Of a DNA stretch of 64,000 bases, positions 10,518-31,639 are shown piece after piece. A program made the translations under genes and the position numbers. The stretch is from Pristiophorus japonicus. Taxonomy: Eukaryota. Below the pieces are notes generated by a model. The model worked only from the letters and a program-made list of their open reading frames with translations, did no database searches and was not told the origin of the DNA. The number at the start of each line of letters is the position of its first letter. The stretch's first letter is position 1. The stretch is from positions 219,170,001 through 219,234,000 of the forward strand of contig NC_091978.1 of assembly GCF_044704955.1 (NCBI RefSeq), given 5' to 3'.

Positions 10518-11218
10518 ATAGAAATTTACATGCAGAAGAAGGCCATTTCGGCCCATCGTGTCCACGCCGGCTGACAAAGAGCCACACGGATCTTGGTCAG
10601 CAGCTCTAAAGGTTACATATAAACCTATGAACAATGATGGAAAGGCAAAGAGCACCCAGCCCAAACCAGTCCGCCTCAGACAACTGCGACCCCTTATACT
10701 GAAACATTCTACACTCCACCCCAACCGAAGCCATGTGATTTCCTGGGAGAGGCAAAAACCAGATAAAACCCAGGCCAATTTAGGGAGAAAAAATCTGGGA
10801 AAATTCCTCTTCGACCCATCCAGGCGATCGAAACTAGTCCAGGAGATCACCCTGGCCATATTCTATTCCCTGCAGTACTTACCATTATATCTGCGCCGTC
10901 CAACAAAAGGTCATCCAATCTAATCCCAATTACCAGCTCTAGGTCCGTAACGCTGCAGGTTACTGCACTTTAAGTGCGCATTCAACCATCTCTTAAAAGT
11001 GCTGAGGGTTTCTGCATCCACCAATCTTCCAAGCAGCGAATTCCATATTCCACACAACCCTCTGCGTAAAGAAGCCCTCCTCAAATCCCTTCTAAAACTT
11101 CCACCAACCACCTTAAAACCATGCCCCCTTGTAATAGGTCGCTCCACCAATGGAAATAGGCCCTTACTATCCACTATGTCCAGGCCCCTCAATATTTTGT
11201 ACACCTCAATAAGGTCTC

Positions 11219-11812
11219 TGTTAGCGTGAATGTTTTCTCGGAAGAATCACTCAACACAGAGTCGGTTCCAACGCCAAAGCGGCCTTTATTTTTGCTAGCG
11301 GGGAGGAAGCCTCAGGACTGGATCCAGGCACTTCTCTCCGATGAACAAAGAAACTCATCGATATTTATATGTTTTACAATAGTTCTTTACAGTTACTCAG
11401 CCCACTTCGGCTGGACACAATCCAATCAAACTGATTATAGATTACATATCGGTTTCTTTAACCCAATAGAATTCTCCTGATATCTCAGGGGCTGTATGTT
11501 CGGTTTTTGTCAGCTCGGGCTGATTAATGACCTCGTTATGTGAGGTGGGCCCCCCCCCCTCCCTTATCTCTGTTCCTCGGGCTCGGCTGTGTGAAGTCAC
11601 TGATTATACCAGTGTACTATAATGGTTTGTTATAATTATCTTGTATCCAAGGCATTCCTGGTAGTGGGCCTCACTAGGTCATTGCTCGGTCAGCCCCAGT
11701 TCATTACTTGACTAACTGAGTACCCATCATGCTTGGGCAGCCATTTTATATGTGGCCACTTTAAACTTATATGAGATTAGATATATTCAGCAGGTGCCTA
11801 ATGCCTACAACA
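11219..11812 (-). repeat. Provirus A 3' LTR
   Basis: TG...CA termini. Direct repeat of 17292-17889. Minus-strand TATA-like CATATAAAT (~11363-11371) and AATAAA (~11286-11291). PPT AAAGGAGGGAAT at 11813-11824. Confidence 0.95.
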
Positions 11813-11950
11813 ATTCCCTCCTTTCGGTAAAGGGACTAGTCCTAGACCCCCTTTAACCGGCCGCCCTACTTTTATTAGATTTTGTGCACGGCCCGGTACT
11901 CCCTGCCTCAACGTGCTGGCCAGTCATGCGGTTTCAGGAGTCCCGGTTGC

Positions 11951-14083
11951 TTAAATCAAATTGACAAAGGCCAAATCCTCCTGCCCCTTTATTAAACAGG
12001 CTTGTTTAGTATTTGGGGACCGGTCATGGGTCCCTCTTCGTTGTGCGTGGTGCCTGCATGCCTGGCAGGCCATTATGCCCCATGTTATTGCTAAGATCAA
12101 TTGTATCCCGACCAGTATGTATGAAATTATTCGAATCCAAGGATGGATGTTCACATTTATTCCCCAGTCCCAGACCTTTCTCCACCAACTCTGACTTTGT
12201 AGGTCTACATCGATATCTTCTTCCAGTACTTTGATTTTAGTTTGCAGTTGGTGGTAGAGCTTTACAGATTGACCCACCCTGATCCTCAATTCTCGTAATA
12301 CTTCGGTTAGATGTGGGATAGGGACATGATCTGATTCATCATAATCCTGCAAATGATCGTGGAGCTGATCGGTTACATCAATAACTTCGGGCTTCCGGCG
12401 CCTAACCTGGGTGATATGCGCTTGCCCGATCGCGACAGGTCGTAGCGGCGCAAAGCAAAAGTTCGGCTGTGGTATCGGGCACTGCAGGTCATTATACCGG
12501 TATGAATGCTCTGTGGTAGAGATGCAGTATCTTCCCTTCCCTCCGTAACCTGCCCTCGCGAAGTGCCTGTGTGCGGCCACTATTTCTAGTACACACCTGT
12601 CGGTTCGGTTAAACCCGCACTCGTCTAGCTCACCTCGGCCTACCGGGTGAGGGCATATTGTGATCTCCCCCCTTTGCTTGCATTCTGTTAGGGAGATCCC
12701 GGTAAGTATGTTGTTTCGACGAACGGTGGAGGTGGTGGTCAGATAGTAACGTATGGAGACATTTTCCCGTATTACTCCGATATTCTCTAGTTGGTACAGG
12801 GGAACAGCCCTGAGTCCGGCGTGGCTATAGGGATCATCAGGACTATCCCTATCCCAGTATTCCTACCCATCTGGCAATCTGGAATTGCTGAGTGTACTCA
12901 GGTCAGTCCCTTCAGAGTACAATTATCCACTGTCCCCCTCTGGTTAGCCAACTGAGCTAAATGTGAACTGTCTATCCAATCGGGTACTTCCCCGCGTTGG
13001 ATCTGGTCGAGATTGTGGCGGATCTGTCCCACCATCCACAGACCATAAGCGCGACAGAGTTGCCCCTGTCTTTGCTTTCCTGTATCTTCTTTTTCTCTAT
13101 CAATGAGGTGATTGATGGTTTTGGCGTGAGCTTCCAGGACTGAGATGCCATCCAACTGGATTTCGGCACCCTCCTTTCCGAGGTTGGCTTGGTCTTCCTG
13201 GTTTTGCTCCACCCTCTCTAATAACCCCTTCATCATCCCTCTAAGCTGTTCCACCCTCTCATTTAACCCTTATATATCTATCGAGTTTACTACGGAGGTC
13301 CTTGTATTGAAACCGGTAGCAACATCATTAACTATTCCCCTCTTTATCCTGGGGGCTGACCCCTGTCCTCGGAATCTACTGGCACCCATTGCATAGGCAG
13401 CCTGCTGCATTACAACTCTACTTAATACATTGTACATTTTCCTTGACTGTTCTGTACAGTATTCCGGCATCTGGATGCCTGAAATATTGATCAGGACAGG
13501 CACAATTTCATGTTTAACATTATCATACAATAATTCCCCTTCGTTGTACATTACAATCCCATTTTCTGGTCCCTTAGTAGTTATGGGACAAGGCAGTTCC
13601 TCGGGCAATGTAGTGGTTCTTATGGGGCGCGGTGTTGGAGGGGGTGAGAAGCACACATACAGTGATATTGCAGCCGCCCCCACCTCCTTGTAGTACCCAC
13701 ACAGCCCCACTCCCTTTTTGCGGATGACTGATTGCTGGGACTGTCATGGAGGTGCGCAAATTGTGCCGAAAGTACATTCATCGGGCCCTTTGACATCCCT
13801 CCGTTTAATGCAGCTGCTCCTTATACCCGTGGAGCACTGTACACATACCCAGCTCTTATTAATTCACTTGTAACCATGCATTAAAATAAGTCCTGTCCTT
13901 GCTCCAGTCCTTGACTGCTGGGATGCACATTCCATCCGTTAAATTAAACAAGACTCCATAGCTCATGTAGTTGTTTATTTCCTGAGTGCACTGCAATCCA
14001 TTGGTATCATCCAGTGTTTGCGTGAGTCTTGAGGTTCCCAGTATCATGAGTCCCCAGAGTCGAAGTCACCACTGCGGTCCCAT
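11951..14083 (-). pseudogene. env: Class I fusion glycoprotein (F-type env) with a few stops and frameshifts
   Basis: Stitched from ORFs 13859-14047, 13270-13710, 12898-13254 and 11951-12580. Signal-like N-terminus, furin site RIKR|GIVNDVATG, long heptad region, Cys-rich middle, second heptad, Trp-rich membrane-proximal SWWRKVWDW, TM helix and short tail. No gamma-type ISD or CX6CC. Confidence 0.8.
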
Positions 14084-14171
14084 CTTGGTGAGTGTTTTAT
14101 CTGAAAATTTTAAACAGATAGCCTGGTCGTCACGAAGTGTTAGGTTCTGGTCTACTTGTGTCGCTGTCACT

Positions 14172-14200
14172 CTGTGGAATCGGAGGTAAGGGTTAGGTTA
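14172..14200 (-). promoter_or_regulatory. Candidate env splice acceptor
   Basis: Minus strand TAACCTAACCCTTACCTCCGATTCCACAG| (branch point, pyrimidine tract, CAG), ~90 nt upstream of the candidate env ATG. Confidence 0.65.
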
Positions 14201-14210
14201 ACCATATTCT

Positions 14211-14363
14211 TTATAGTCGTACCATCTCTATCACTTCATGTCCCTGTCTGGGCTGCCATCGGTTTTGTGTTTGAGCCTGCTGTGCTCGAGCCTGCACGAT
14301 GACCCATCTAAATATTATCCAAACTCCAATCAACACCAATGCCACCATTATTCCTCCAAACAT
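14211..14363 (-). CDS. Putative 50-aa single-pass membrane accessory protein
   Basis: Manual translation MFGGIMVALVLIGVWIIFRWVIVQARAQQAQTQNRWQPRQGHEVIEMVRL*, lying between the pol remnant and env. Confidence 0.45.
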   Translation of the reverse strand: MFGGIMVALVLIGVWIIFRWVIVQARAQQAQTQNRWQPRQGHEVIEMVRL

Positions 14364-14599
14364 CGCTGTCTGCTTTACCGTTAGGTTGGGTTTGTGGACT
14401 ACATCTACCCACCGTGGGGTACATTGGCTCTATTGCCATAGGTGATGGTGCTATGGCTGCGCACTGCATTATCCGTCTAGTCCCGTTTTTTTAAAACATC
14501 TCTTCCAGCCTGTTTATCTTAGCTTTTAACTCTTGACCAGCTAGTTCTGTTTTATTTTTATTCTGAATATCCCACCATTTCCTCTGTCTGTCAGGTGAG

Positions 14600-16480
14600 T
14601 CTTCTTTATTTTATTAAGAAATCAAAATTAATAATGTCCAGTATAAAACAGCTGTCAATGGAAAGGGTTAACTCCTTTACAGATTTGTAAGAAAGCCTGA
14701 TGTCATTACGTGACTTTACGTAATCATCCGAAAAATTCTTTTTTTTTCCAAGTCTTTGTGCCTTCAAAACTTGCTTAGAAATTAGGAATCCGTTAAAACA
14801 GCATAAATCATTAGTAAAGTGGTTATAATAAAAATCTCATCGGGAAAGACAGCATTTTAGATTAAACTTCAATTTTTTCTTAACTTCTAATTCAAGTACT
14901 TGCCAAAGAATTTTTTTTTATTAATTGATTTAAAACAAGACCACACATTTTGAATAGCTATTTAGTTTACTGAAATCCAAATTTCACACATGCTGTGTAC
15001 ATTCTAACATTTTGTTTTATTTTACGGTCCCGTTCACTGGACAAATCTTGTGTTTTATTTCTCTCTCGGCACAAAATCTAAACATCCGTGCCAGTTCCAT
15101 TTTCGATAAGATTTTTAAAATTCAGTAAGATTCTCTAATTCCCAGTTTTTTTTCTGTGCTGAGTTCGCATAGCTTAGATCTTTTCTCCTCATTATCTTCA
15201 GACCCCCCTGCTTGTTTAGACTGTTCGGGACTTTTCTTGATAAACAACGTCCATTTTGGAAGTCTTTTCAAACTGCAGTGAAATTTTCACTGTAGAGTGT
15301 CTTTTACCTCTTCCAATTTTTTTTTCCTTTTCCTAATTAAACCAATATCTTTTTCACAGCAAACATCAACTAGTATTTAGTAAGTTATGTCTTTTTCCAT
15401 CACAAACACTTTTTTTTCAGCACTTATTTAGTATGTTACATCTTTTTTTTTTCAGATCTCCTTTCTTCAAATTAGATTTGTATTTTACACGGAGGGCTTG
15501 TGACTCCATAAATTTGTTAATTTAAAATCATTTGTTTACTTTCAAAGTGGCATCTTTATCTTTTTCTTTTCTCCATAACTAGAATGGAGTCCAGCAATTA
15601 GGCTTTGAGGGCTGCTTTTCGTTATCTCAAAATGCTCCAATTTCAAAGTCGTTAAAATGTCTCTTCTAAACTGCTAAAGCTTGCTGTTTTTAACATTTTT
15701 CAAAAGTCCCTTTTACACCTTCGCAGATAGCTCGCCACTCGCCCAGGAGTTTGATCTGATCCCTGAAGGTATTTCTAGATTGTTTCCAAACCTTTTAGTT
15801 TTATATCTCCTTTTTTCTTTAAGAGATCAGATTTAATTTAATAATTTTTTTTGAATTCACCTCAGTATTTTGCTGTGCCTTCTCTGACTATCTCAAAATC
15901 CCAATTCAAACTTTGTAATTTCAATCTTTATTTAAAACTTTTTTTTTGAGCTAGAAGCTTTTTTTAAAAGGCATTCTTTATCTCATTCTGAGACTAAATT
16001 TACATCATTCAACCCAATGTAATCAATCATTGCATGTTTTCTTTCGACAAGTAAGTGAGCGTGTCAAATAAAATTCTTTTTTTTTCTCAATCACCGGGAC
16101 CATGTATTTTTTATCTTTTACTCAACAATCATATCCTTTGTGCATTTCCTAGCTCCATAACTTATCATCCGAATAAATCCACACCTAACTTAAAATGTCT
16201 TAAAAGTTCCCACATACAGGACAACACTACAAAGGGTTAAAAAAACTTTCACTCTGTTTGGAAAAGTGGGTGGAGCTAAAATAAACAGACAGTTGCATTC
16301 CTCTTCCAACCAGGCTTTTGGAAACATGAAAACATAAAAAAATTCATTCCGCAGTCAAAAAATCACACAAGGACTCTCAATGACAGATATTCACAAAAGT
16401 CTCTCTTCATTCAACAAAGCCTATTAGTTTTTTTTTTGGCCGGCTCTATTCTTGGATCCATACTTCACTTAAGATAATCA
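14600..16480 (-). pseudogene. Heavily decayed and deleted gag-pol region of provirus A
   Basis: Rich in A/T homopolymers with no ORF. Faint integrase-like traces read CEIW (CxxC-like, ~14977-14988) followed by WQVLEL (~14885-14908). Confidence 0.4.
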
Positions 16481-16483
16481 CTA

Positions 16484-16741
16484 TCAGGTTTTTTTTTTAT
16501 TTCTTACATATTGATTTACTTCCTCTGTTAGTTTTACGTGGGCTCGCAGTATCAAAACTACTGCCTTTTCCTCTTTGTCTTTTTTTTCCTTCTCCCACAA
16601 TTCTCTTTGATTCGCTGGCAGGTCCTGAGGATCCCACCCTGCTCTAATCATTTTCTCGATTAGTTTCTTTTGTTTTTCCACCAGGTGGCGGGTAAGGGAC
16701 CATTCTGGTCCCCACTCGAGGTTACTTGCTTTCATGGCCAT
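16484..16741 (-). pseudogene. Truncated gag-like N-terminus of provirus A
   Basis: ATG-initiated ORF after the ~530-nt leader; charged and helical (LVEKQKKLIEKMIRAGWDP..ELW). Assigned by position only. Confidence 0.5.
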
Positions 16742-17234
16742 TCCTGGGTAGGACTAGAACCATTAGGAATCTACTCTCAGAGGTCCGCTTTCTACCTAGC
16801 GTAACTTGTAGTAGACCGTCTCCTGGCTACTGTCAGGTCACAAGTTCTGCTGTTACACAAACTTATACAATTCTTAAAACGTGTTTAAGCAATTCCCGCA
16901 GTGCTCTACGTATCCTTAACGACTACCTACCACCGCTCTGCCCATTGGTCCGACCCTGTTCACAGATTTGGATTCCGTTAGCCGCTGTACACCGCTTGGT
17001 TCTACCCCGGTGTATATTTCAAATCACACTACTAGGTCCGGAAGATGTCTTTCGGTATCACGATCCCACGGTCCAAGTGTGTTCCCGGCACCTACTTAGT
17101 TCCTGGCCGTCACGTGGGACTAAAGTCCTCTTAATTCAGGCAGAGGCTAGGTGTTTGAGATATTGGACCATCTCCTCATGTCGATCAACCAGCATCCACC
17201 TTCCGCACCCGTTATAAAATTTTGTTTAAGGTAT

Positions 17235-17243
17235 ACTCACCCG
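17235..17243 (-). promoter_or_regulatory. Candidate major splice donor of provirus A
   Basis: CGG|GTGAGT on the minus strand, ~30 nt after the PBS. Confidence 0.65.
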
Positions 17244-17271
17244 GTTTCTCAAAGAGCGTCAGCGACCCCGC

Positions 17272-17290
17272 AATCCTGTTCGTGACGCCA
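17272..17290 (-). promoter_or_regulatory. Primer binding site, tRNA-Ser(CGA)
   Basis: Plus strand AATCCTGTTCGTGACGCCA equals, from memory, the 3' end plus CCA of a vertebrate tRNA-Ser(CGA). It lies 1 nt from the LTR. Confidence 0.85.
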
Positions 17291-17291
17291 C

Positions 17292-17889
17292 TGTTAGCGT
17301 GAATCTTTTCTCGGAAGAATCACTCAACACTCAGAGTCGGTTCCAATGCCAAAGCGGCCTTTATTTTCGCTAGCGGGGAGGAAGCCTCAGGACTGGATCC
17401 AGGCACTTCTCTCCGATGAACAAAGAAACTCATTGATATTTATATGTTTTACAATAGTTCTTTACAGTTACTCAGCCCACTTCGGCTGGACACAATCCAA
17501 TCATACCGATTATAGATTACATATAGGATTCTTTAACCCAATAGAATTCTCCTGATATCTCAGGGGCTGTATGTTCGGTTTTTGTCAGCTCGGGCTGATT
17601 AATGACCTCGTTATGTGAGGTGGGCCCCCCCCGCCCCCCCCTTATCTCTGTTCCTCGGGCTCGGTTGTGTGAAGTCACTGATTATACCAGTGTACTATAA
17701 TGGTTCGTTATAATTATCTTGTATCCAAGGCATTCCTGGTAGTGGGCCTCACTAGGTCATTGCTCGGTCAGCCCCAGTTCATTACTTGACTAACTGAGTA
17801 CCCATCATGCTTGGGCAGCCATTTTATATGTGGCACTTTAAACTTATATGAGTTTAGATATATTCAGCAGGTGCCTAATGCCTACAACC
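17292..17889 (-). repeat. Provirus A 5' LTR
   Basis: Direct repeat of 11219-11812 with roughly 15 differences by eye. The outer terminal base is mutated (CC instead of CA). Confidence 0.95.
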
Positions 17890-19568
17890 GTCTCCTCTCA
17901 ACCTCCTCTGTTCCAATGAGAACAAACGCAGCCTATCCAAACTGTATTCATAACTAAGATTCTCCATTACAGGCAGCATCCAAGTAAATCTCCTCTGCAC
18001 CCTCTCTAGTGCAATCATGTCCTTCCTATAGTATGGCGATCAGAACTGCACGCAGTACTCCAGCTGTGGTCTAACCAAAGTATTATACAATTTAAGCAGA
18101 ACCTCTCTGCTCCTATAGTCTATGCCTCGGCCACTAAAGGCAAGCATTCCATATGCCTTTGTAGCCACCTTATCGACCTGGCCTGCTACTTTCAGGAATC
18201 TGTGGACAAGCACACCAAGGTCCCTTTGTTCATCGACACTATTAAGTGGCCTATCACTTAATGTGCATACCCTTTCCTTATTAGCCCTCCCAAAATGCAT
18301 CACCTCACACTTCTCTGAATTAAATTCCATTTGCCACTGCTCTGCCCACCTGACCAGTAGATTGATATCCTCCTGCAGCCCATGACTTTCCTCTTCATTA
18401 TCAACCACACAACAATTTTACTGTTGTTTGCAAATTTCTTAATTATACTCCCTGTATTCAAATCTAAATCATTGATATATTCCACAAAAAGCAAGGGACA
18501 CAGTACTGAGCCTTGGGACACAGTATTGAAACCACTGGAAACATCCTTCCAGTCACAAAAACATCCATCAATCATTACTCTTTGCATCCTACCTCCAAGC
18601 CAATTTTGGATCCAACTTGCCACTTTTCCCTCTATCCCATGGGCTTTAACCTTCATGACCAGTCTACTATGTGGGACCTTATCCAAAGCCTTGATAAAGT
18701 CCATATATATTACATCGTACACATTACCCTCATCGATTCTCTTGGTTAGCTCCTCAAAAAATTCAATCAGGTTAGTCAAACACGATCTTCCCTTAACAAA
18801 TCCGAATTAATCCTTGCCTTTCCAAATGTAGATTTATCCTGTCTTTCAGGATTTTTTGCAATAATTTTCCCACAACTGAGGTTAGGCTGACAGGCCTGTA
18901 ATTACTCAGCCTATCCCTTTCTCCCTTCTTAAACAAAGGTACTACATCAGCAGTCCTCCAATCCTCCGGCACCATGCCCAGTTCCAAAGAGGACTGGACA
19001 ATGATGGTCAAGGCCTTTGCTATTTCCTCATTTACTTTGCTCAACAGCCTGGGATGCATTTCATCTGGGCCTGGGGACTTATATACTTTCAAAGCTGAAA
19101 AAGCCCTTAATACTTCCTCTCTCACTATATTTATTTCATCCAGAATAGCCTCATCGATAACAGTATCTACATTGCCCCATTCTTTTGTGAAAATAACTTC
19201 TGCCTCCACACAAAGATTACCCTCATGGTCTCTAATAGGCTCTACCTTTTCTTTAGTTACCCTCTTACTCTTAATAGAACATCTTAGGGTTTTCTTTAAT
19301 TTTACTGTCCAAGAATTTCTCGTGTTCTCTCTTAGCATTCCTAATATTCTTTTTAATTTTGCCTCTTAACTTTCTATATACCTCTAAAGATTCTATAGTA
19401 TTTAGCCGTTAGTAAATGACATAAGCGTCCCTTTTTTTCTTAATCCTCCCCTGTAAGTCCCTGGACATCCAAGGGGCTCTAGAATTATTTTTCCCAGCAT
19501 TTTTCTTTAAGGGCACATGTTTGGCCTGAGCCTTCCTGATCTCCTCCTTGAATCCCTCCCACTGGTCT

Positions 19569-21654
19569 AGAAACATAGAAACATAGAAAATAGGTGCAGG
19601 AGTAGGCCATTCGGCCCTTCAAGCCTGCACCATCATTCAATAAGATTATGGCTGATCATTCCTTCAGTGCCCCTTTCCTGCTTTCTCTCCATACCCCTTG
19701 ATCCCTTTAGCCGTAAGGGCCATATCTAACTCCCTCTTGAATATATCCAGTGAACTGGCATCAACAACTCTCTGCGGCAGGGAATTCCACAGGTTAACAA
19801 CTCTCTGAGTGAAGAAGTTTCTCCTCATCTCAGTCCTAAACGGCCTGCTCTTTATCCTAAGACTGTGTCCCCTGGTTCTGGACTTTCCCAACATCGGGAA
19901 CATTCTTCCCGCATCTCGCCTGTCCAGTCCAGTCAGAATCTTATATGTTTCTATGAGATCCCCTCTCATCCTTTTAAACTCCAGTGAATAAAGGCCCAGT
20001 TGATCCAGTCTCTCCTCATATGTCAGTCCTGCCATCCCGGGAATCAGCCTGGTGATCCTTCACTGCACTCCCTCAATAGCAAGAACGTCCTTCCTCAGAT
20101 TAGGAGACCAAAACTCAACACAATATTCCAGGTGGGGCTTCACCAAGGCCCTGTACAACTGCAGCAAGACTTCCCTGTCCCTATACTCAAATCCCCTTGC
20201 TATGAAGGCCAACATACCATTTGCCTTCCTCACCGCCTGCTGTACCTGCATGCCAACTTTCAATGACTGATGAACCATGACACACAGGTCTCGCTGCACC
20301 TCCCCTTTTCCTAATCTGCCGCCATTCAGATAATATTCTGCCTTTGTGTTTTTGCCCCCAAAGTGGATAACCTCACATTTATCCACATTATACTGCATCT
20401 GCCATGTATTTGCCCACTCGCCTAACCTGTCCAAGTAACCCTGCAGCCTCTTAGTGTCCTCCTCACAGCTCACACCGCCACCAAGTTTAGTGTCATCTGC
20501 AAACTTGGAGATATTACACTCAATTCCATCATCTAAATTATTAATATATATTGCAAAGAGCTGGAGTCACAGCATTGAGCCCTGCAGCACTCCACTAGTC
20601 ACTGCCTGCCATTCTGCAAAGGACCCGTTAATCCCGACTCTCTGCTTCCTGTCTGCCAACCAGTTCTCTATCCACGTCAGTACCTTAACCCCAATACCAT
20701 GTGCTTTGATTTTGGGCACCAATCTCCTGTGTGGGACCTTGTCAAAAGCCTTTTGAAAGTCCAAATACACCACATCCACTGGTTCTCCCTTGTCCACTCT
20801 ACGAGTTACATCCTCAAAAAATTCCAGAAGATTTGTCAAGCATGATTTCCCTTTCATAAATCCATGCTGATTTGGACCAATCCTGTCACTGCTCTCCAAA
20901 TGCGCTGCTATTTCATCCTTAATGATTAATTCCAACATTTTCCCCACCACCGATGTCCAGCTAACCGGTCTATAATTACCCGTTTTCTCTCTCCCTCCTT
21001 TTTTAAAAAGTGGTGTTACATTAGCAACCCTCCAGTCCATAGGAACTGATCCAGATTCAATCGACTGTTGGAAAATGATCACCAATGCATCCACTATTTC
21101 TAGGGCCACTTCCTTAAGTACTCTGGGATGTAGACTATCAGGCCCTGGGGATTTATCAATCCCATCAATTTCGCGAACACAATTTCCCACCTAATAAGGA
21201 TATCCTTCAGATCCTCCTTCTCACTAGACCCTTGGTCCCCTAGTAATTCCTGAAGGTTATTTGTGTCTTCCTTTGTGAAGACAGAACCAAAGTATGTGTT
21301 CAATTGGTCTGCCATTTCTTTGTTCCCCATTATAAATTCACCCAAATCCGACTGCAAGGGACCTACGTTTGTCTTCATTAATCTTTTTCTCTTCACATAT
21401 CTATAGAAGGTTTTGCAGTCAATTTTTATGTTTCCGGCAAGCTTCCTCTCATACTCTATTTTCCCCCTCTAAATTAAACCCTTTGTCCTCCTCTGCTGAA
21501 TTCTAAAATTCTCCCAGTTCTCCGGTTTTCTGCTCTTTCTAGCTAATTTGTTTGCCTCTTCCTTGGAATTAATACTATCCTTAATTTCTTTTGTTAGCCA
21601 CGGTTGAGCCACCTTCCCCATTTTATTTTTACTCCAGACAGGGATGTACAATTG
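19569..21654 (-). mobile_element. 5'-truncated CR1 nested in the host CR1
   Basis: (TAGAAACA)n tail at 19568-19590. RT ORFs include YLDFQKAFDKVPH, SGVLQGS and LYRALVKPHLEYC. Close relative of 60233-64000. Confidence 0.95.
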
Positions 21655-22745
21655 ATTTACCCACAAGTAGCTGTTTCCAGTTCACTATGCCCAAATCACT
21701 CCTTAACTTAGCAACATTAGCTTTTTCCCAATTTGGAACTTTTATTCCAGGCCTATCTTTGGCCTTATCCATAACCAACTTGAATCTGACTGAATTATGG
21801 TCATCGGCACCCAAGTGCTCTCCCACTAATACCCCTTCAATCTGCCCAGCTTCATTCCCCAAAATTAAATCCAAGACCGCCCCCTCTCATGTTGGGCTTG
21901 CTACATACTGACTAAAAAAATTTTCTTGAATGCATTTCCAGAATTCTGCACTCTCTATACCCTTCACACTAAATTTGTCCCAATCAATATTTGGATAGTT
22001 AAAATCCCTACTATTACTACCTTATGGTTTTTGGACCACAGCAATTTGCCTACATATTTGCTCCTCTTTCTCCCTCCCACTGTTTGGGGGTCTATAATAC
22101 ACGCCTAGCAGTGTGATCGCCATTTTTTATGTTTTAATTCGACCCATATGGCCTCATTCGATGATCTCTCTAATATATCATCCCTTCTCACCACTGTAAT
22201 AGTTTCTTTAATCAGTCCCGCTAGCCCCCCTCCCCTTTTTACCCCCCTCTCTATCTTGTCTTAAAATCCTGTAGCCACAAATATTGATCTGCCAAACCTG
22301 CCCCTCTTTCAGCCATGTTTCTGTAATGGCTATTATATCATACTTCTAAATGTCTCCCTGTGCTCTTAGCTCATCCGCCTGATTCGCTATTAAAGTGTAT
22401 ACCATTCAACACTGGAAGACCTCCTTGCTTACTACTTACTAAGTCCTTTTTCCTCTGTCTTACAGATTTGCTTTCTAGATTCTTGCTATCAAATTTCTGC
22501 TTTACTTCCTTCCCTTTTGAATTTGTTCTCAGGTTCCCATGCCCCTGCCAAGCTAGTTTAAACTCTCCCCAACAGCACGAGCAAAACTCTCCGTGAGGAT
22601 ATTGGTTCTGGCGCTGTTGAGATGCAACCTGCACGATACTTCCCTCTTTCTGGGAGAAGTTTTAAAATATTCACGTTTCCAATCTTGCTAAGCACACACT
22701 AGTGACCTCAAGATTGCTGATGAACTTATCAATATTATTTACAAT

Positions 22746-25190
22746 ACAAAAGCAAAATACTATGATGCTGGAAATCTGAAGAAAAAAAACAGAAAATGCT
22801 GGAAACACTCAGCAAGTCAGGCAGAACTGTGGAGACAGAAACAGAATTAACATTTCAGATCGATGACCTATATAACAGAAGTTAGAGAATTAATAGTTTA
22901 TGAACAATTATAGAGCCAGAGAAAAAGGAGGAGACAGGAAAGAACAAAGGGGAGGGTCTGTGATAGAGTGGAAAGCAGGAATGATTAACTGACAAAGGGA
23001 TAATGGTTCAAGGCAAAATGGGGCGTGGTAATCGATCACTAAAGAATCAATAGATGGGTTGAGAGCAGCTGTAAATGGCAACAGCAGAGCCATTACAAGC
23101 ACCTGCTGTCCGAGAAAATAGGAGCGATGTGAAGTTGTTGAACACAATGTTGAGGCTGGAAGGTCGTAAAGTGCCGAAGAAAAAAATGAGGTGCTGTTCC
23201 TTGAGCTTGCACTGAGGTTCATTAGAACAGTGCAGGAGGCCGAGGATAGAGAGGTCAGAGTGGGAGTAGGATGGAGAATTAAAATGACAAGCAACTGGAA
23301 GCTCAGGGCCATGCATGTGGACTGAATGAAGGTGTTCAGCAAAGAGACCACCCAATCTATATTTGGTCTCCCCGATGTAGAGGAGACCACATTGTGAGAA
23401 GCAAATACAGTATACTACATTGAAAGAAGTACAAGTAAATAGTTGTTTAAGCTGGAACAAGAGTTTGGTGCGATGGGAGGAAATGAAAGGGCAGGTATTG
23501 CATTTCCAGCGCTTTCATGGAAAGGTCCTAGGTGAAAGAGAGCGGGGATTGGGGGAGGTGGAAGATTGGACCAGGGTGATGCAGAGTGAATGGTCCCTTC
23601 AGAATGCTCAAAGAGGAGGAAAGGAAGATGTGTTCGGTGGTAGCATCTCGCTGGAGGTGGCAGAAATGGTGGAGGATGATCGTTGAATGTGAAGGCTGGT
23701 GGGGTGGAATGTGAGGAGAAGGGGGACCCTATTGTGGTTCTGGGAGGGAGGAGAAGGGGTGAGGGCAGAAGTGCAGGAAATGGGCCATACACGATCGAAG
23801 GCCATGTCAACCATGGTGGAGGGGAATCCTCAGTTGAGGAAAAAGGAAGACATATCGGAAGCATTACTATAGAAGATGGCATCATCAGAACAGATGTGAC
23901 AGAGGTGGAGAAACTGGAAGAATGAAATAGAGTCCTTACAATAAGGAGGAAAGAAGTTCAATTAAGGTAGCTGTGGGAGTCAGTAGATTTGTAGTAGATA
24001 TTGGTGGTCAACCTATTCCCCAAAATTAAAATAGAAAAATTGAGGAAGGGAAGGGAAGAATTGGAGAGGGACCATGTGAAGACGAGGGAGGGATAGAAAT
24101 TGGAAGCAAAGTTGATGAAATTTTCCAGTTCAGGTGAGAGAAAGAAGTAGCACCAACATAGCCATCAATGTATAGGAAAAAGAGGTGAGGGAGAGGACCC
24201 AAGTAGGATTGGAACAAAGAATGTTCCACGTATCCCATAAAAAGGCAGGGCATAGCTAGGAGCCATATGGATTCCCATAGTGACACCTTTTATTTGGAAG
24301 AAGCATGTTGTCCTGGTGGTGGGTAGAGATGTAGAGGGATGAGCTATCCATGGCAAAAAGGACATGGTTAGGGCCAGGAAATTGCAAACAGTTAAAGTGC
24401 TGGAATGCATCAGAAGAGTCGTAGATGTAGGCCAAAAGAGATGGGACAAGGGGATCAAAAATGGAGTCAAGATAGGCAGAAATAAGTTCCATGGGACAGG
24501 AAGAGGCTGAAACAATGGGTGTACCAGGGCAGTCCTATTTGTGGATCTTGGGAAGGAGGTAGAAGCGGGATGTGCAGGGTTGGGGGACTATGTGAATGGA
24601 GACCATGGGGGAAAGATCTCCAGAGAAGATGAGGTCAGTGACTGTCTGGAAACGATGGTTTGATGTTTGGCGGTGGGGTCATGGTCTGGGGGAGATAGGA
24701 GGAGATGTCGAAGATTTGGCATTCAGCCTCTGCAAAGTAGAGGTTTGTTCACCAAACAAAGGAAGGCTGCCCTGCTCAGCAGGTTTAATGATAATGTCAA
24801 GGTTGGATCTGAAAGAACAGAGCTGAAAAATCAGAGGGAGATAGGTTAGAGTGAGTGAGGGGAACAGAGAAATTGAAATGGCCAATGTCACATCGGCAGT
24901 TCCCAATGAAAAGATCAAACAAGGGTAAGAGGCTAGAGGGAGAGGCCCAGGTGGAATGAGAATTCTGAAGATGGGAGAAAGGGTCAGCTGTGCGGGGGGA
25001 AGACTCCTGGCCAAAGAAGTGGGCACAGAGGCGAAGATGATGGACGAAGAGCTCAGCATCATGTCAAGCTCAAAATTCATTGAGGTGGAAGCGTAAGGGA
25101 GTGAAGCTGAGGCCTTTGCTCAGGACTGATAATTTGGCATCAGAGAAGGGAAGTCTCAGAGGGGATAGTGAAAACACAACAAAGGATGAC
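22746..25190 (-). mobile_element. Degenerate Penelope-like retroelement (RT + GIY-YIG endonuclease)
   Basis: GIY-YIG domain NVVYCI.C..C.LLYIGET..RL..FAEH...PVACHFN...EQHLIF..GTL.P..LN (23047-23460). RT motifs QIKGVTMG..MAPSYA, LFMGYVE, LYIDG, and IIIKPAEQG. Confidence 0.9.
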
Positions 25191-25659
25191 GATGTGCCTA
25201 TTGTTATCCATGACACATTTTGCATTAAATGCCATTTTAATTTACTGCTGGCCATTCTCCAGGTTATCTAATTCCATTTCACACTAGCCATAGTTTTATT
25301 TTGACCGATCAGCCATAATTCCATGAAGAGAACAGACATATTGTTGAGGATGCATCAAGCAAACAGGCTGACATTTCTAGGAGGATTGCATGAATGATCT
25401 TCTGTAAAATCCAAACACTGGAAACACAGCAGTAATATTCCCAAACGTGTACTCATTAACTAATGATATGTTTTGATGTGCCTAATTACATTTCCCTTGT
25501 AACTTAAGCTTGGGGATTTATGACTGCAGTGAAAAGCCTTTGCTCAATAATCATGATTCCTCTGAACAAACGCTAACAACTTTCATGTAAAGCGACATCA
25601 GGTAAGGACAGGATTAGATTGACTGTAACTTCCCCCGCATCCCACAGTGCAAAGGTCTG

Positions 25660-26200
25660 TGTGAAAAGATAGAAAAAGAGCAACCATAGATTGCAAGGCT
25701 TGCTGGGACATTATATTTGGTCAACCTAAGAATTAGAGCTTACTTCAGCAACTATACCAAACAAGCTCTCAGCAGTTGAAACCATGGGTTGCATTACCTC
25801 ACGGCAGCTAAGGTCATCTGTCTTCTCTGTCTAATTATAATCACAATAAGGATGTGTAAACCAAAAAAAACAAGACAGTGTGTACAGGGGGCAAGGAGAG
25901 GTTCGCCCAAAATAAGGAAAGGGTAGCTAAGACAAGTAGCCATTGGATAACACTGATGAGGTAATTAAATTAACTGCTATACTCTGCACTATTACAAAAA
26001 AAAGAGGAACCATCACATATGATAGGACTTGTTTACTTGGGTGTATAAATATTCCAAAATTTCTGTAGATTGTCGGAGTTGGTACCCTTAGCCTTTGACT
26101 AGGGCACTCTCCCCTTGTATACAAGTAAAAATAAACTAACAATCTGACGGTCTGCTTGTGTTAAGAGTCTAAACTTGAATCGGTGTCTTCGACAGAATTT
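25660..26200 (+). repeat. Provirus B 5' LTR
   Basis: Direct repeat of 30775-31302. TATAAATA at ~26044 and AATAAA at ~26130. The exact 3' end is uncertain (26194-26201). Confidence 0.92.
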
Positions 26201-26202
26201 AT

Positions 26203-26220
26203 TGGAGGTTCCACCGAGAT
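26203..26220 (+). promoter_or_regulatory. Primer binding site, tRNA-Gln
   Basis: TGGAGGTTCCACCGAGAT, the canonical Gln PBS. Confidence 0.92.
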
Positions 26221-26542
26221 CGCTTACTATTTGCCGGTGAGTAAACGAACAAGAACACGGTGACTCTACAGGGAAGGACTCTAACTGGCCAGTCATCAGT
26301 GACATTTTTGTTACTAAAGGAGCCCTTCCTTGGAGAGAGCGCAAGTGTAGTCTGTTTGTCTCGGCAGAGGTACTGCGATTGTCGGACTCATTTCAGGATT
26401 GAGTTAAATTTTTGTAATCACTTCCTCTTTCAGCTTGACAGTAAGAGGGGACAGATTCCGAAAAGCAAAAAATTTCAGCCCTGAAGCGGGCCGGCAGATT
26501 GTAAAGGGGGGAAGGTAAGAAAATACGTCATTAAAAGGTCCC

Positions 26543-26674
26543 TGTTTCTTGTGTGGTAGAAACAAATACCCTTGTGTGATAGGGAGAAATAAGATGGGAC
26601 GCGATCCTTGTGTGATAGGATCATAGAAATTATCCTTGTGTGACAGGATAAGTCATCCTTGTGTGATAGGATGA
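26543..26674 (+). promoter_or_regulatory. Array of five stem-loops in the ERV leader (candidate packaging signal)
   Basis: Conserved core CT-TGTGTG(AT/GT/AC)-AG with different but self-complementary stems. Confidence 0.7.
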
Positions 26675-27100
26675 GGACTCTGGTTTGATGGGATCATTTA
26701 GAATAAGTTAAGGACTCAGTCTGTAGGGGCGTACCATGCAGACTAAGAATTGATTATTTGTTTAGTTAAAGCATAAGGATTATGATCTGTGCACCCCTTT
26801 GGGTTTTCACATTTTTATTGTCTTCATAATATTGTTATGTGCGTCAATTGTCTATGAGCTCTCAGGAAGACATAACAGGGGAGGTTGTGTTTCAGAAACG
26901 TATAAATTGGTTGAAACAGAACAGTGATCGGTTGATTAACAGCGAGTGACGCGTGTCCAACAATAACTCAAACACCCAGACTGAGCCCGAATTAAGAACC
27001 CAAATGGGTCACGTGACGACCAGGTGAATTGGGCGTGGGGAACTCAGTTGGAGCGAGAGGACTGTGATACGGAGAACTGTGATATCTCAACCAGTTAAAT

Positions 27101-27290
27101 ATGGGTGCTGGAGCAAGAAAGGGCACACCAGTCTTTTTTATGCTCCAGAATTGTGGTCAGTCTTCAAATGATCACCTAAAAAAAAATGGGTAAAGTGGAC
27201 TCAGGGTGAAAACAGGCCATTTCCACCCGATGGTTCATTTAATTTAGAGAGAACAACATGTAGAGGAGTGTCTTATAAACAGAGACCCAA
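27101..27290 (+). pseudogene. gag: gag N-terminal (matrix) remnant
   Basis: MGAGARKGTPVFFMLQN..(frameshift)WVKWTQGENRPFPPDGSFNL: myristoylation-type MG start and the gamma/epsilon matrix-like P.xGSF motif. Confidence 0.7.
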
Positions 27291-28329
27291 GGGAAAAAGA
27301 AAGTAATAAAAAAAAGGCCTGAATTCCGATTCTTTGAGCCCACGTAAAATTAACAGAGGAAGTAAATCAATATGAAAGAAAAGGGGAAAAAAAAGAAGAA
27401 ACCTTATAGTGATGTATATGGATCCAAAATATAGAGCTGGCTGAACAATAAGCTTTGTTGAATGAAGAGAGACTTTTGTGAATGTCTGTTTTTGAGTGAG
27501 AGTACTTGTGTGATTTTGACTGCGGAATGAATGAAAGCCTGTTTGGGAAACCGGGGAGTTGTCAGTTTGTTTTAGCTCCACCCACTTTTTCAAACAGAGT
27601 GAAGTTTTTTTTTTAAACCCTTCGGAGTGTTGTCTTGTGTGTGGGAAGTTTAAGAGTGTGAACCTTATTGAATTACATTTTAAGTTAGAAACGAAGGTGT
27701 GGATTTATTCGGATGATAAGTTACGGAGCTAGGAAATTATCAAAGGATAGGTTTGTTGAGCAAACCCTGCGTGGTCTGAGAAGGGAAGTTGTAAAGCATT
27801 TTTTTTTAAAAGCCTACGTGGTCTGAGAAGGGAAGTTGTAATGCATTTTTTTTTAAAGCCTGCGTGGTCTCTTGAGGCTGCAGGCTGGGGGAGTACGCTC
27901 CCATTGCCCTTTGTGTAAAATCTTGACGCGAAAGCTTCTAGCTCAGTAAATAGATTTTAAATAAATGATTGGCAGTACAATATCCGAATTGGGATTTTGA
28001 GATATTTCAGGTGATTCTCCTTGATAAACATTTTGGTTGTATTGGAAAAATCTTGGGTTTGGAAGCCTTTTTAATAAAATTACACAACTACTGAGTCAGG
28101 AGCTTAAAAGGTTGTAACTTATGAGACACTGTATCATAAAATTGAAGTTACAGAGCAAAATATTGGAGTTTTTGATGTTCAGCTTCTAAACCAAGAGTTG
28201 GGCACACAATTATAAAACAAGTACTTTGCATTCTGTGATCTGTGAATCACTATAAGCATAAATGAGAAGTCCGATTTAAAAAAAAACAGTATTACCATAT
28301 TTGACATTTTGTAATCCAACAATAGATAC

Positions 28330-29290
28330 AAATACAAAAGGGGGGACGGCAGATTATATTTTGGCAACTTGGTATGCACCAGGTATTTCGGCAATTGCAA
28401 AACAAATCTGTGAAAATTGTGTTACCTGTCAGACAATGAATCGGGTAAAACAGAAAAGGTAGACTCTGCCTCCCACCCAAACCCAATGGGGCCTTTTGTA
28501 CATTTGCAAATGGATTTTATTGAATTACCCCCATGCATGGGATTTAAGTATGTATTAGTAATTATAGATGTGTTTTCTAAATGGGTTGAAGCTTTTCCAT
28601 GTAAAAAGAATGACACAACTACTGTCGCGAAGTATTTGTTAAAAGAAATTGTGCCATGATTTGGCATACGTGTACAACTCTCAGTGACAATAGGTCACAT
28701 TTTACTGGGACAGTTGTGAAAGAAATGTGTCGAGCGTTACAAATCGACCAACATTTCCACTGCAGTTATCACCCACAGTCAGCTGGATTGGTAGAGAGAT
28801 ACAACGGAATGTTGAAGAATAAACTAGCAAAGTTATGTGATGAAACTGGACTCAAATGGGTCGGACTGTTACCTTTGGCAGTAATGGTAATGTGATCAGC
28901 AACAAATAGAACGACAGGATTATCACCACATGAAATCGTCATGGAACGTCCCCAATGTTTGCCTTTTTCTGCACCGTTTACTGCTAAACAAATGGATGTC
29001 CACAAAATAGAAGAAAATATGCTAAACTATTTCATTGCTTTAACAAAATGTATTTCTAGCTTTCATTCCCAGGTAAAGGAAGCCCAAATTGATCCTGCTG
29101 AAGGAAGATGCCATAGCTTGGAGCCTGGCGAGTTCGAGTACGTGAAGGTGTTCAAGAGGCAAAATAGTCTTCACCCAAGGTTTGAAGGTCCATTCTAGAT
29201 CCTGTTGACCACCAATACTGCCGTGAAGATAAAGGAGAGATCAACATGGATCCACGCCTCACACTGCAAAAGAGCTCCAGGACACGAGGA
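28330..29290 (+). pseudogene. pol: Retroviral integrase remnant
   Basis: CENCVTC zinc finger, HLQMDFIEL, IDVFSKWVEAFP, SDN.SHFT, YHPQSAGLVERYN, L.PRFEGPF. Several stops and frameshifts. Confidence 0.92.
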
Positions 29291-29299
29291 AAAGGAATC

Positions 29300-30740
29300 A
29301 CCAACACCATCAGTAAAGGGAAATGGACATTAGGACTATGTTTCCTTGTGACACTTATAATACCTGTAATGCCCGAATTACATGTAAACACCTTCTTGTA
29401 TATGTCCCACAAATACGCTATGGAAAACAACAAAGAAGGAGATTGTTGGATATGTACCCAAACCCCTCTCCACTCTAAGGGAGGATTCCTCGTAGACCTA
29501 TCCCACTTAACCTGTCAGAAGTAGTAGAATGGTATATCTACCAGAACGGCACACGTCAATTCCCTAGGATGATAAGAGTTGCGTCTGTGGTAGTATACCC
29601 ACCATCGGGCGACGGGAAGATGATGGAATCCTCTAGTTTATCATTTTACCCCATATCTGCAGAGCCCTGGGAAAAAGGGGGGATATCACCTGAATACCTT
29701 TGAAGGGTGGTACCAACCGAGGTAAGACCACTCCCAACAGCCTCCCTTCCTCACCCTTACCAGGGCCACAGGTATGGGAAGGCCACCGGGGACAATATGT
29801 TTCGTAAGGAACTTAGCCGGGGGAATAGTCGTAGGCACGATTCGGTGCGAATATAATTTTACAGTGATGGGTACTCCTGACGAGTTTTCCCTTTATACGT
29901 CCTCTCAGTTTTATGGTTGTACATTGAATGTCCCATACGCCAACCAGATAGGTACTTTCAACTATTCCATGGTATCCGCAGGGTTTGATGTGGATAAAAC
30001 CACCTCGTACAATGGAACATACTTTGTTTGTGGCCACAAGGCCTCCCCCTGGTTGCCAAGGGGCTGGACAGGATCATGTTACCTGGCATATATGGTACCA
30101 TTCATTCATCACTTATCCTCTCTAGCAAATCGCCCGCATTATCGATCCAGACGAGCCATTACAGAAACACAACGATTCTTTTCTATCCTTGTTCCCCCTC
30201 TAGAAGTAGCATTTGCCATAAAAGAAATAAGAAAAGTGGCTAGAATATTAGAAGAGGTAGCAAACGACACTATAGAAGCTATAAGCGGATTAAACAATGA
30301 AATGGTGGCTATAAGAACAGTAGCTTTGCAAAATAGAATGGCTCTAGACTATCTGCTAGCAGAAAAGGGTGGAACATGTGCACTAATGGGGTCCGAGTGT
30401 TGCACGTACATTCCTGGCAATTCTGAGGAAATAGGTAACTTAGTGGACCACTTCCGGAAGGAAGTTGAAAAGTTAAAGAAACCAGGTTCCTGGGACATGT
30501 TTGATTGGGCGGATGGTTCGGGCCTATAGGTCAAACCATAGTACAAGGGCTGATCATATTCCTGGTCATTATCTTTGCTCTATATTTGGTATTTGTCCTG
30601 ATAAAATGCTGCTGTGCGCGACTAGGGGCTGCAGCCGTACCAGCGGGGCGACCACCATGATGATAGCCACAACCCCAGAAGCCTCAGAGAAGGCAGAAAC
30701 CATGGAGATGGAGAGACTCTGTAAAATTCAGTTGAACTAA
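29300..30740 (+). pseudogene. env: Gamma-type env remnant
   Basis: Signal peptide, CWIC, W.GSCYL, furin RSRR, immunosuppressive domain LQNRMALDYLLAEKGGTC, CX6CC (CALMGSECC), and hydrophobic TM after a stop at 30527-30529. Confidence 0.95.
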
Positions 30741-30774
30741 AAGTTATTGTCCCTATAGGGACAAAAGGGAGGAA

Positions 30775-31302
30775 TGTGGAAAGATAGAAAAAGAGCAACC
30801 ATAGATTGCAAGGCTTGCTGGGACATTATATTTGGTCAACCTAAGAATTAGAGCTTACTTCAGCAACTATACCAAACAAGCTGTCAGCAGTTGAAACCAC
30901 GGGTTACATTACCTCACGGCAGCTAAGGTCATCTGTCTTCTCTGTCTAATTATAATCACAATAAGGATGTGTAAACCAAAAAAAACAGACAGTGTGTACA
31001 GGGGGCAAGGAGAGGTTAGCCCAAAATAAGGAAAGGGTAGCTAAGACAAGTAGCCATTGGATAACTCTGATGAGGTAATTAAATTAACTGCTAGACTCTG
31101 CACTATTACAAAAAAAGAGGAACCATCACATATGATAGGACTTATTTACTTGGGTGTATAAATATTCCAAAATTTCTGTAGATTGTTGGAGTTGGTACCC
31201 TAAGCCTTTGACTAGGGCACTCTCCCCTTGTATACAAGTAAAAATAAACTAACAATCTGACGGTCTACTTGTGTTAAGAGTCTTACCATGAATCGGTGTC
31301 TT
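30775..31302 (+). repeat. Provirus B 3' LTR, end truncated
   Basis: Matches the 5' LTR up to AATCGGTGTCTT, then runs directly into duplicated flank. Confidence 0.92.
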
Positions 31303-31639
31303 AGGACAGGATTAGATTGACTGTAATTTCCCTCGCATCCCACAGTGCAAAGGTCTGCCAACACTCACTGTCCAGGTGGACATGTGAATGAAGAGCTGGA
31401 GGCTGGCCAGAGCCCTTGGATCCATAACCCAACTTCAGAAAAGGAGGGAGGAAAATTGAATCATAGAATCATAGAATCATTACAGCACAGTAGGAGGCCA
31501 TTCAGCCCATTGAGCCAGTGCCGGCTCTCTGCAGGAGCACTTCAGCTAGTCCCAATCCCCCACTTGGTGATCTGAAAGGAAAAAATTAACACAAAGTAAA
31601 CATTCCCTCGCATTTTTATTCATCAAGCAGCCTATCATT

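Follow-up and report, generated by a model that had tools for sequence, protein, structure and literature searches.

A non-coding cassette shared at the gag start of defective endogenous retroviruses of six lineages in Pristiophorus japonicus

The window, that is, the whole stretch of 64,000 nucleotides analysed here (Pristiophorus japonicus, contig NC_091978.1, positions 219,170,001 to 219,234,000 of the forward strand), contains two proviruses on opposite strands, designated A and B. Provirus A lies on the minus strand (17890-11218) and its LTRs are 97.0% identical. It consists of a gag stub followed by the cassette that is the subject of this study, 1.3 kb of further non-coding sequence and a broken env gene; the A-rich continuation beyond the cassette ends in a gag scrap resembling that of the D lineage described below (14595-14552 and on). 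The entire element (11218-17890) is nested in a LINE-like reverse transcriptase (RT) element, pieces of which are found on both flanks. Provirus B (25660-31302) has LTRs 96.5% identical. It is flanked by a 55-base direct repeat (96%; 25605-25659 and 31303-31357) instead of a 4-base one. Together with the shortened 3′ LTR, this repeat looks like the product of an aberrant integration with a long target duplication. The features of both proviruses are collected in Table 1.

Table 1. Features of proviruses A and B (window coordinates).
Feature	Position	Strand	Remark
Provirus B, 5′ LTR	25660..26194	+	
B primer-binding site	26203..26220	+	presumably tRNA-Gln
B-lineage gag stub (matrix start, frameshifted)	27101..27306	+	homology to cassette-free B copy L051 stops at 27306
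A-lineage gag scrap brought into B with the cassette	27295..27374	+	short A-rich microhomology overlap with the end of B gag
Shared cassette in B	27375..28006	+	
B cassette blocks	I 27449-27523; II 27591-27655; III about 27707-27752; VI 27931-28006	+	
Imperfect 24-bp hairpin in B cassette	about 27540-27598	+	
B integrase remnant	28337..29291	+	
B env remnant, gamma type	29186..30700	+	Pfam TLV_coat
Provirus B, 3′ LTR	30775..31302	+	last few bases missing; followed by the 55-base repeat of the 5′ flank
Provirus A, 5′ LTR	17291..17890	-	5-bp target duplication read from flanks
A primer-binding site	17273..17290	-	presumably tRNA-Ser
A gag stub, 85 codons	16487..16741	-	homology to gag-pol-bearing A copies stops at 16490
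Shared cassette in A	15889..16487	-	
A cassette blocks	I 16423-16351; II 16261-16198; III about 16172-16132; VI 15961-15889	-	
A-rich non-coding continuation	14552..15879	-	common to C, D and F lineage elements
A env, with stops and frameshifts	11951..14184	-	no Pfam family
Provirus A, 3′ LTR	11218..11814	-	

Self-BLAST of the window matched segment 27312-27764 to segment 16569-16117 on the opposite strand (72% gapped identity, E 1e-75) and segment 27931-28004 to segment 15961-15889 (82%, E 1e-12). A single local alignment joined B 27292-28004 to A 16589-15889, with 536 of 616 ungapped columns identical (87%) and a score of 458, as compared to a maximum of 36 among 50 shuffles. Thus, the shared stretch noted in a preliminary description of this DNA is real. 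Each of the seven words named there as common to both elements occurs exactly once per strand, where that description had placed it, and the cassette has the same sense relative to transcription and lies just after the gag start in both proviruses. Also as described, the LTRs of A and B show no similarity to each other and the env classes differ, with the B env matching Pfam family TLV_coat (E 3e-15) and the A env matching nothing in Pfam. The statement that the module stands in place of gag-pol holds for most of gag, pro and RT, but not for all, as B retains a remnant of integrase. A second shared block was noticed in the leaders: about 115 bases of the B leader (26961-27073, plus strand) are 72% identical to A-lineage leaders (near 17160-17050, minus strand), including those of gag-pol-bearing A copies. 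This leader block is older than the sharing of the cassette.

The preliminary description was concerned with two elements only, a scope that proved too narrow, as the cassette is present genome-wide in thousands of copies. A first look at the 5.9-Gb genome returned 3,345 and 4,059 candidate matches, and exact word matches number 763 for a 32-mer taken from block I and 2,590 for a 28-mer taken from block II. Forty copies 93-100% similar to the A cassette and many copies 92-95% similar to that of B are scattered over many contigs; full-length A-type and B-type copies were seen among the sampled loci. To characterize the surroundings of the matches, we took the first 40 block-I matches on contig C1, in positional order with none skipped, and a further 20 of the first block-II matches, outside all earlier lists. 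All 60 (40/40 and 20/20) lie in proviral sequence and in the sense orientation. In 59 of them a leader, an LTR or pol/env sequences of a recognisable lineage could be identified; the remaining one (L002) is broken up by other insertions. No antisense cassette was found among the fetched loci.

Scoring the families that flank the cassette placed it under six LTR/backbone lineages, labelled A to F, with five primer-binding sites (which we take to include those for tRNA-Ser, tRNA-Gln and tRNA-Leu) and two env types. The LTR groups of the carriers have no similarity to one another. A, D and E share 59-64% RT identity with one another and B and C share 49%; across the two groups the figure is 34-36%. 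In an RT tree, B and C fell with gamma/epsilon-type RTs (100/100) and A, D and E fell outside. Together, these identities and the tree indicate that the cassette crosses two deep clades. As read from the flanks, the target duplications of B and C copies are 4 bp long; in A and D copies most measure 5 bp. Lineage B has the characters of class I (gamma/epsilon-like) endogenous retroviruses (ERVs): the RT of copy L012 lies within the gamma/epsilon clade (100/100) and the env is of the TLV_coat family. As to the F lineage, more than 100 of 150 matches to its leading ORF are packed on contig C23 between 13 and 66 Mb; of two F-type copies fetched from this contig, one carries the cassette and the other is interrupted.

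The affiliation of lineage A is less straightforward. The best PDB match of its RT is the RT of MLV; assignment to class I was rejected, since the RT falls outside class I in a tree built without loki, class II or class III references. Copies L041-L043 and L050 combine this RT position with a 5-bp target duplication, two zinc knuckles and F-type env features. Both RT_RNaseH and RNase_H are matched in pol; this tether plus RNase H arrangement is a feature of lokiretroviruses (PMC7947760, as far as its available text goes), but is common to all retroviruses and not diagnostic. The A-lineage env matches no entry in Pfam or PDB, and its Atlas features score 0.92-0.94 to the Baculo_F, gypsy env and Fusion_gly clusters. 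Going by these scores, the protein might be an F-type fusion protein, which we regard as a lead only. An AlphaFold model (pLDDT 30.5) was too poor to use, and all 8 proteins related to this env are from sharks. Lokiretroviruses have an env similar to paramyxovirus F (PF00523) and an RT sister to those of all other retroviruses; cartilaginous fish are not listed for them in the portion of that paper available (PMC7947760). Among the ERVs of cartilaginous fish, those of clade III are the most frequent, according to an account available in part (PMC11089739). Lineage A may be a lokiretrovirus or a clade III ERV.

Parent copies were collected by primer site or gag, without use of the cassette. In A copies with gag-pol, similarity to provirus A stops at 16490 and resumes at 14184, with no match in between. 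At the point where provirus B switches to the A scrap, copy L051, a B element free of the cassette, runs on into its own gag, and a 9-base A-rich word is common to both parents there. The switch into A-lineage gag implies that B obtained the cassette from a defective A-type RNA. Selecting C copies by their primer site yielded 15 of 20 with a compact form of the cassette and 5 without; in further D copies the shared sequence was present in 8 and absent from 2 of 10. Among copies picked by gag, the cassette was found in 7/8 of the B, 2/10 of the A and 7/8 of the F lineage, the A and B sets having been chosen for long open frames. Of 118 loci in total, 100 have the core, and in none of these do capsid and the 5′ half of RT occur together (some loci span only 5 kb, which may cut off RT); conversely, the 13 loci in which the two do occur together are all free of the cassette.

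The first block had been ascribed to A-lineage gag. Both the peptide pointed out at the time and the match to gag-pol-bearing A copies bear this out. The proposal that the A lineage was the donor holds in part: the copy in B did arrive by way of an A-lineage element, with A-gag residues about 59-88, but this lineage, judging by its gag-pol-bearing copies devoid of the core, is not the ultimate donor. Beyond the first block, A-lineage gag is absent, and the remaining sequence belongs to neither the A nor the B parents, so that A is not the source of the core. Sensitive DNA and translated comparisons of the core with 11 cassette-free or coding stretches of lineages A-E produced no match. An Rfam scan of positions 14000-28400 of the window gave no match in the cassette and one chance-level hit outside it. 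As regards lineage F, no coding-complete parent that could be the donor was found among 8 copies fetched, 7 of which have the cassette while the eighth is interrupted. A coding role of the core was discarded, as its open stretches are short and their frame differs among copies.

The cassette entered its recipients through at least 7 different junctions. It joins A gag near codon 88, 190 and 60; it entered B through the A scrap and, once, directly; it starts near codon 4 of C gag, follows a shared linker in D and E, and lies after a 125-codon ORF in F. Scraps of A, C and D gag accompany the longer forms. Some carriers are mosaics well beyond the cassette. The C1 subfamily combines an LTR and leader of lineage C with the cassette, internal sequence of A type and a D-lineage env (86-89% identical to D parents), and has a 230-base relic of a D-lineage LTR just before its own 3′ LTR (L039 7033-7262, element orientation); this relic is a leftover of a second crossover. 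The E lineage (L009, L090, L100, L102 and L104) associates an A-clade pol with a gamma-type env 76-79% identical to that of C parents, a combination which, on sequence comparison, points to env capture across the two RT clades.

These exchanges appear recent. Subfamilies with unrelated LTRs differ from one another, in the greater part of the shared stretch, at only about 0-7% of columns, which is close to the roughly 2% seen within subfamilies; LTR pairs are mostly 91-98% identical in carriers and parents, indicating similar ages. A tree of the cassette region rejected grouping as a single clade for lineages A (p-AU 3.5e-5), C (0.013), D (0.031) and B (0.047); the tree included 50 rows, with L007 left out, and its fixed-length windows add non-homologous sequence in deleted copies. 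Recombination between lineages at the RNA level, as postulated in the preliminary description, accounts for the uniform sense orientation, the 9-base microhomology at the B junction and the gag scraps of other lineages carried along. A sense-only cassette with differing junctions is what template switching produces, and the transfers therefore likely occurred by switching between co-packaged RNAs, recombination during reverse transcription being the inferred step. Co-packaging and template switching are also discussed as the origin of mosaic ERVs in the available text on Harlequin (PMC4724089).

Retention of the cassette was mapped over 32 carriers collected by primer site or gag. Blocks I and II cover three 30-base bins, each of which survives in 31 of these copies; block III survives in 29 and every other bin in 24 or fewer; as 11 of the 32 copies belong to one subfamily, these counts are not independent. 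Every multi-copy subfamily mapped retains blocks I and II, and in one C subfamily the cassette persisted even when a leader and a large part of gag had been regained. Blocks I-III are missing from one copy (L088), whose flanks are present. Among five subfamilies, block II shows no variable column out of 72, as opposed to 72 of 1,095 downstream (about p 0.007 by hand, before allowing for 11 regions chosen after looking). Block I (8/69 columns) and the hairpin region (16/64), on the other hand, are more variable between subfamilies than what lies downstream. On mechanical grounds alone, the central part of any transferred segment is the one most often preserved, which weakens the argument from retention. 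Nonetheless, at least 7 captures at the same position, each followed by amplification, along with the retention of blocks I and II, favour the view that the cassette is selected in cis, to which we would give about two chances in three.

The core is 41% U, rich in UGU and poor in CU motifs. The preliminary description had envisaged a cis-acting RNA module; folding and covariation analysis lent little support to an RNA structure. The whole core folds no better than shuffled sequences (z -0.56 in B and +1.37 in A). An imperfect 24-bp hairpin is 89% paired over 30 copies. Its covariation is weak, with 4 pairs showing changes on both sides and 73 of 500 shuffles scoring at least as well. In A1 and C1 the upper half of the hairpin is disrupted, and several amplified subfamilies have lost one arm. 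Block II resembles a 3′ splice site, with AG kept in 13 of the 16 contexts listed. Within block II and ahead of it (27571-27632 in B, 16277-16229 in A) there are three splice-acceptor-like sites in tandem, together with a donor-like word. The stop codon of the gag stub is found 150-250 bases before block II in A, L047/48, D and F, and was not seen in this position in E or C2/C3. Contigs from four sequencing runs, of unrecorded kind and under two organism labels, span all 30 bins of provirus A; the 15 joints listed, out of 84, were uninformative on splicing.

Taking the sequence comparisons as a whole, we postulate, with a probability of about one half, that the cassette is a cis-acting non-coding element, spread by template switching and favoured by selection for making more unspliced defective RNA available to helper particles. 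The cassette sits just after the gag start of defective proviruses in six lineages; template switching in particles containing two kinds of RNA would have moved it from one lineage to another, and each recombinant later amplified. As to its action, we favour the idea that linear U/UG-rich sites bind host RNA-binding proteins that would promote export, stability or splicing control of the full-length RNA, since such sites would work under either clade's Gag and need no conserved fold. The SERV-K/MER11 elements, which acquired a 750-bp export element by recombination, offer a precedent, as far as the available text describes them (10.1101/2022.05.11.490678). A wider reading, possible although we hold it only tentatively, would see in the cassette a selfish RNA element indifferent to lineage, which parasitises retroviruses: it would pass by template switching into whatever lineage is co-packaged, in either of the two deep clades, displace the beginning of gag and make each recipient a satellite that outbreeds its helper.

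The position of the cassette, always at the gag start, would also fit a promiscuous packaging or dimerisation signal recognised by the Gag proteins of several lineages. Gammaretroviral packaging signals extend into the start of gag. Moreover, the cassette resembles the leader of B itself in composition, with 7-9 UGU per 150 bases in either, the pairing of the 24-bp hairpin is high, and MLV is known from a partly available account to package VL30 RNA (PMC4997597). However, every element has retained its own leader, the Gag proteins of the two clades are very distant, and the hairpin is damaged in the copies mentioned above and covaries no more convincingly than many shuffles; packaging is thus an unlikely explanation. 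No better founded is the idea that the cassette merely hitchhikes as a scar in a very highly expressed defective RNA, which would have been an abundant donor and whose shared homology eased further switching. It would explain why a patchwork of A, C and D gag scraps travels with the cassette, why divergence of the core is overall not lower than that of downstream sequence and why a stable fold is missing; Harlequin illustrates such webs with no selected module known in the available part of the account (PMC4724089). Neutrality is difficult to reconcile with seven or more captures of one 250-base segment, always in an identical functional position and each followed by amplification, with deletions that take away everything but blocks I and II, and with the C subfamily that kept the cassette despite its regained leader and gag.

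The cassette might also act as DNA, as an internal enhancer for germ-line or early-embryo transcription. This would confer a lineage-independent benefit and require no RNA structure; an enhancer, though, has no need for the strict gag-start position, and the U-tract composition and tandem acceptor-like sites point to RNA, making this alternative improbable. Even more so, and close to negligible, is the notion that the module is an independent transposon or that A and B share it through local gene conversion or misassembly. The two proviruses are only about 8 kb apart; yet the B cassette is 94-95% identical to copies on other contigs as opposed to its gapped 72% to that of A, and the thousands of copies elsewhere show that this B copy is not alone in having it. 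The transposon was rejected by sampling: the ends of the cassette vary by lineage, it has no terminal repeats or target duplication, and the sampled matches were proviral and in sense throughout.

Returning to the proposed cis-acting cassette, mosaic ERVs as such are already known from Harlequin; what appears new, in that we did not find it in the literature searched, is a single cassette recaptured across two deep clades. No description of one non-coding cassette common to many ERV lineages across deep clades was found in open-access full text. Our findings document a recent exchange at the RNA level between retroviral groups that have 34-36% RT identity, differing env types and differing target-duplication lengths, implying cross-packaging over a distance at which it is usually thought to be rare. 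Should blocks I and II act in cis, evolution would have delimited a minimal ~150-base element of advantage to defective RNA with Gag proteins that are unrelated to one another, and the question of why non-autonomous ERVs outnumber their helpers becomes directly testable. Even if neutral, the cassette clearly marks a web of recombination among six lineages in a cartilaginous fish.

Several known systems bear comparison with these elements; the papers cited were available in part. In ETn/MusD, as here, non-autonomous LTR elements outnumber coding helpers; ETn depends on one helper lineage with which it shares its LTRs, whereas our cassette is common to several lineages and its carriers retain env or pol remnants (PMC6466679). 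The stability element of RSV RNA lies directly after the gag stop, like the cassette in A, D and F copies, but the CU-rich tracts typical of it are wanting here, with 0-1 CU motifs per 150 bases of the core (PMC5580461). This low count does not suggest PTBP1-type protection for the core. The SERV-K/MER11 constitutive transport element is, like the cassette, a cis-acting RNA segment of ~0.7 kb that stems from inter-lineage ERV recombination and marks a successful clade, the function being predicted in our case (10.1101/2022.05.11.490678). A constitutive transport element exports unspliced RNA without a viral protein and has a conserved covarying stem-loop; as regards structure, the cassette has the z scores given above, a single non-universal 24-bp hairpin with weak covariation and no Rfam match.

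The packaging segment of VL30 and Harvey sarcoma virus is a comparison with a structured signal, of which none was demonstrated in the cassette. That laboratory case reportedly involved one capture. As in the present elements, RNA of a retroelement is packaged by, and recombines with, an unrelated retrovirus (PMC516450, PMC4997597). The closest parallel is with Harlequin and other mosaic HERVs, likewise defective, often env-keeping mosaics that re-amplified after recombination, with an internal LTR relic (here in the C1 subfamily) and swapping of env (PMC4724089, PMC5753468). In the manner of Harlequin-type elements, several copies of the same internal mosaic are present, in sense, at different sites, and A and B have the same LTR at both ends and no third, internal one, the C1 subfamily being the exception (PMC4724089). 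Harlequin, however, is assembled from class I families already known, and recombination of this kind mostly stays within a class (PMC4724089, PMC5753468), whereas here a parentless non-coding cassette is found under six unrelated LTRs, in groups whose RTs are so far apart.
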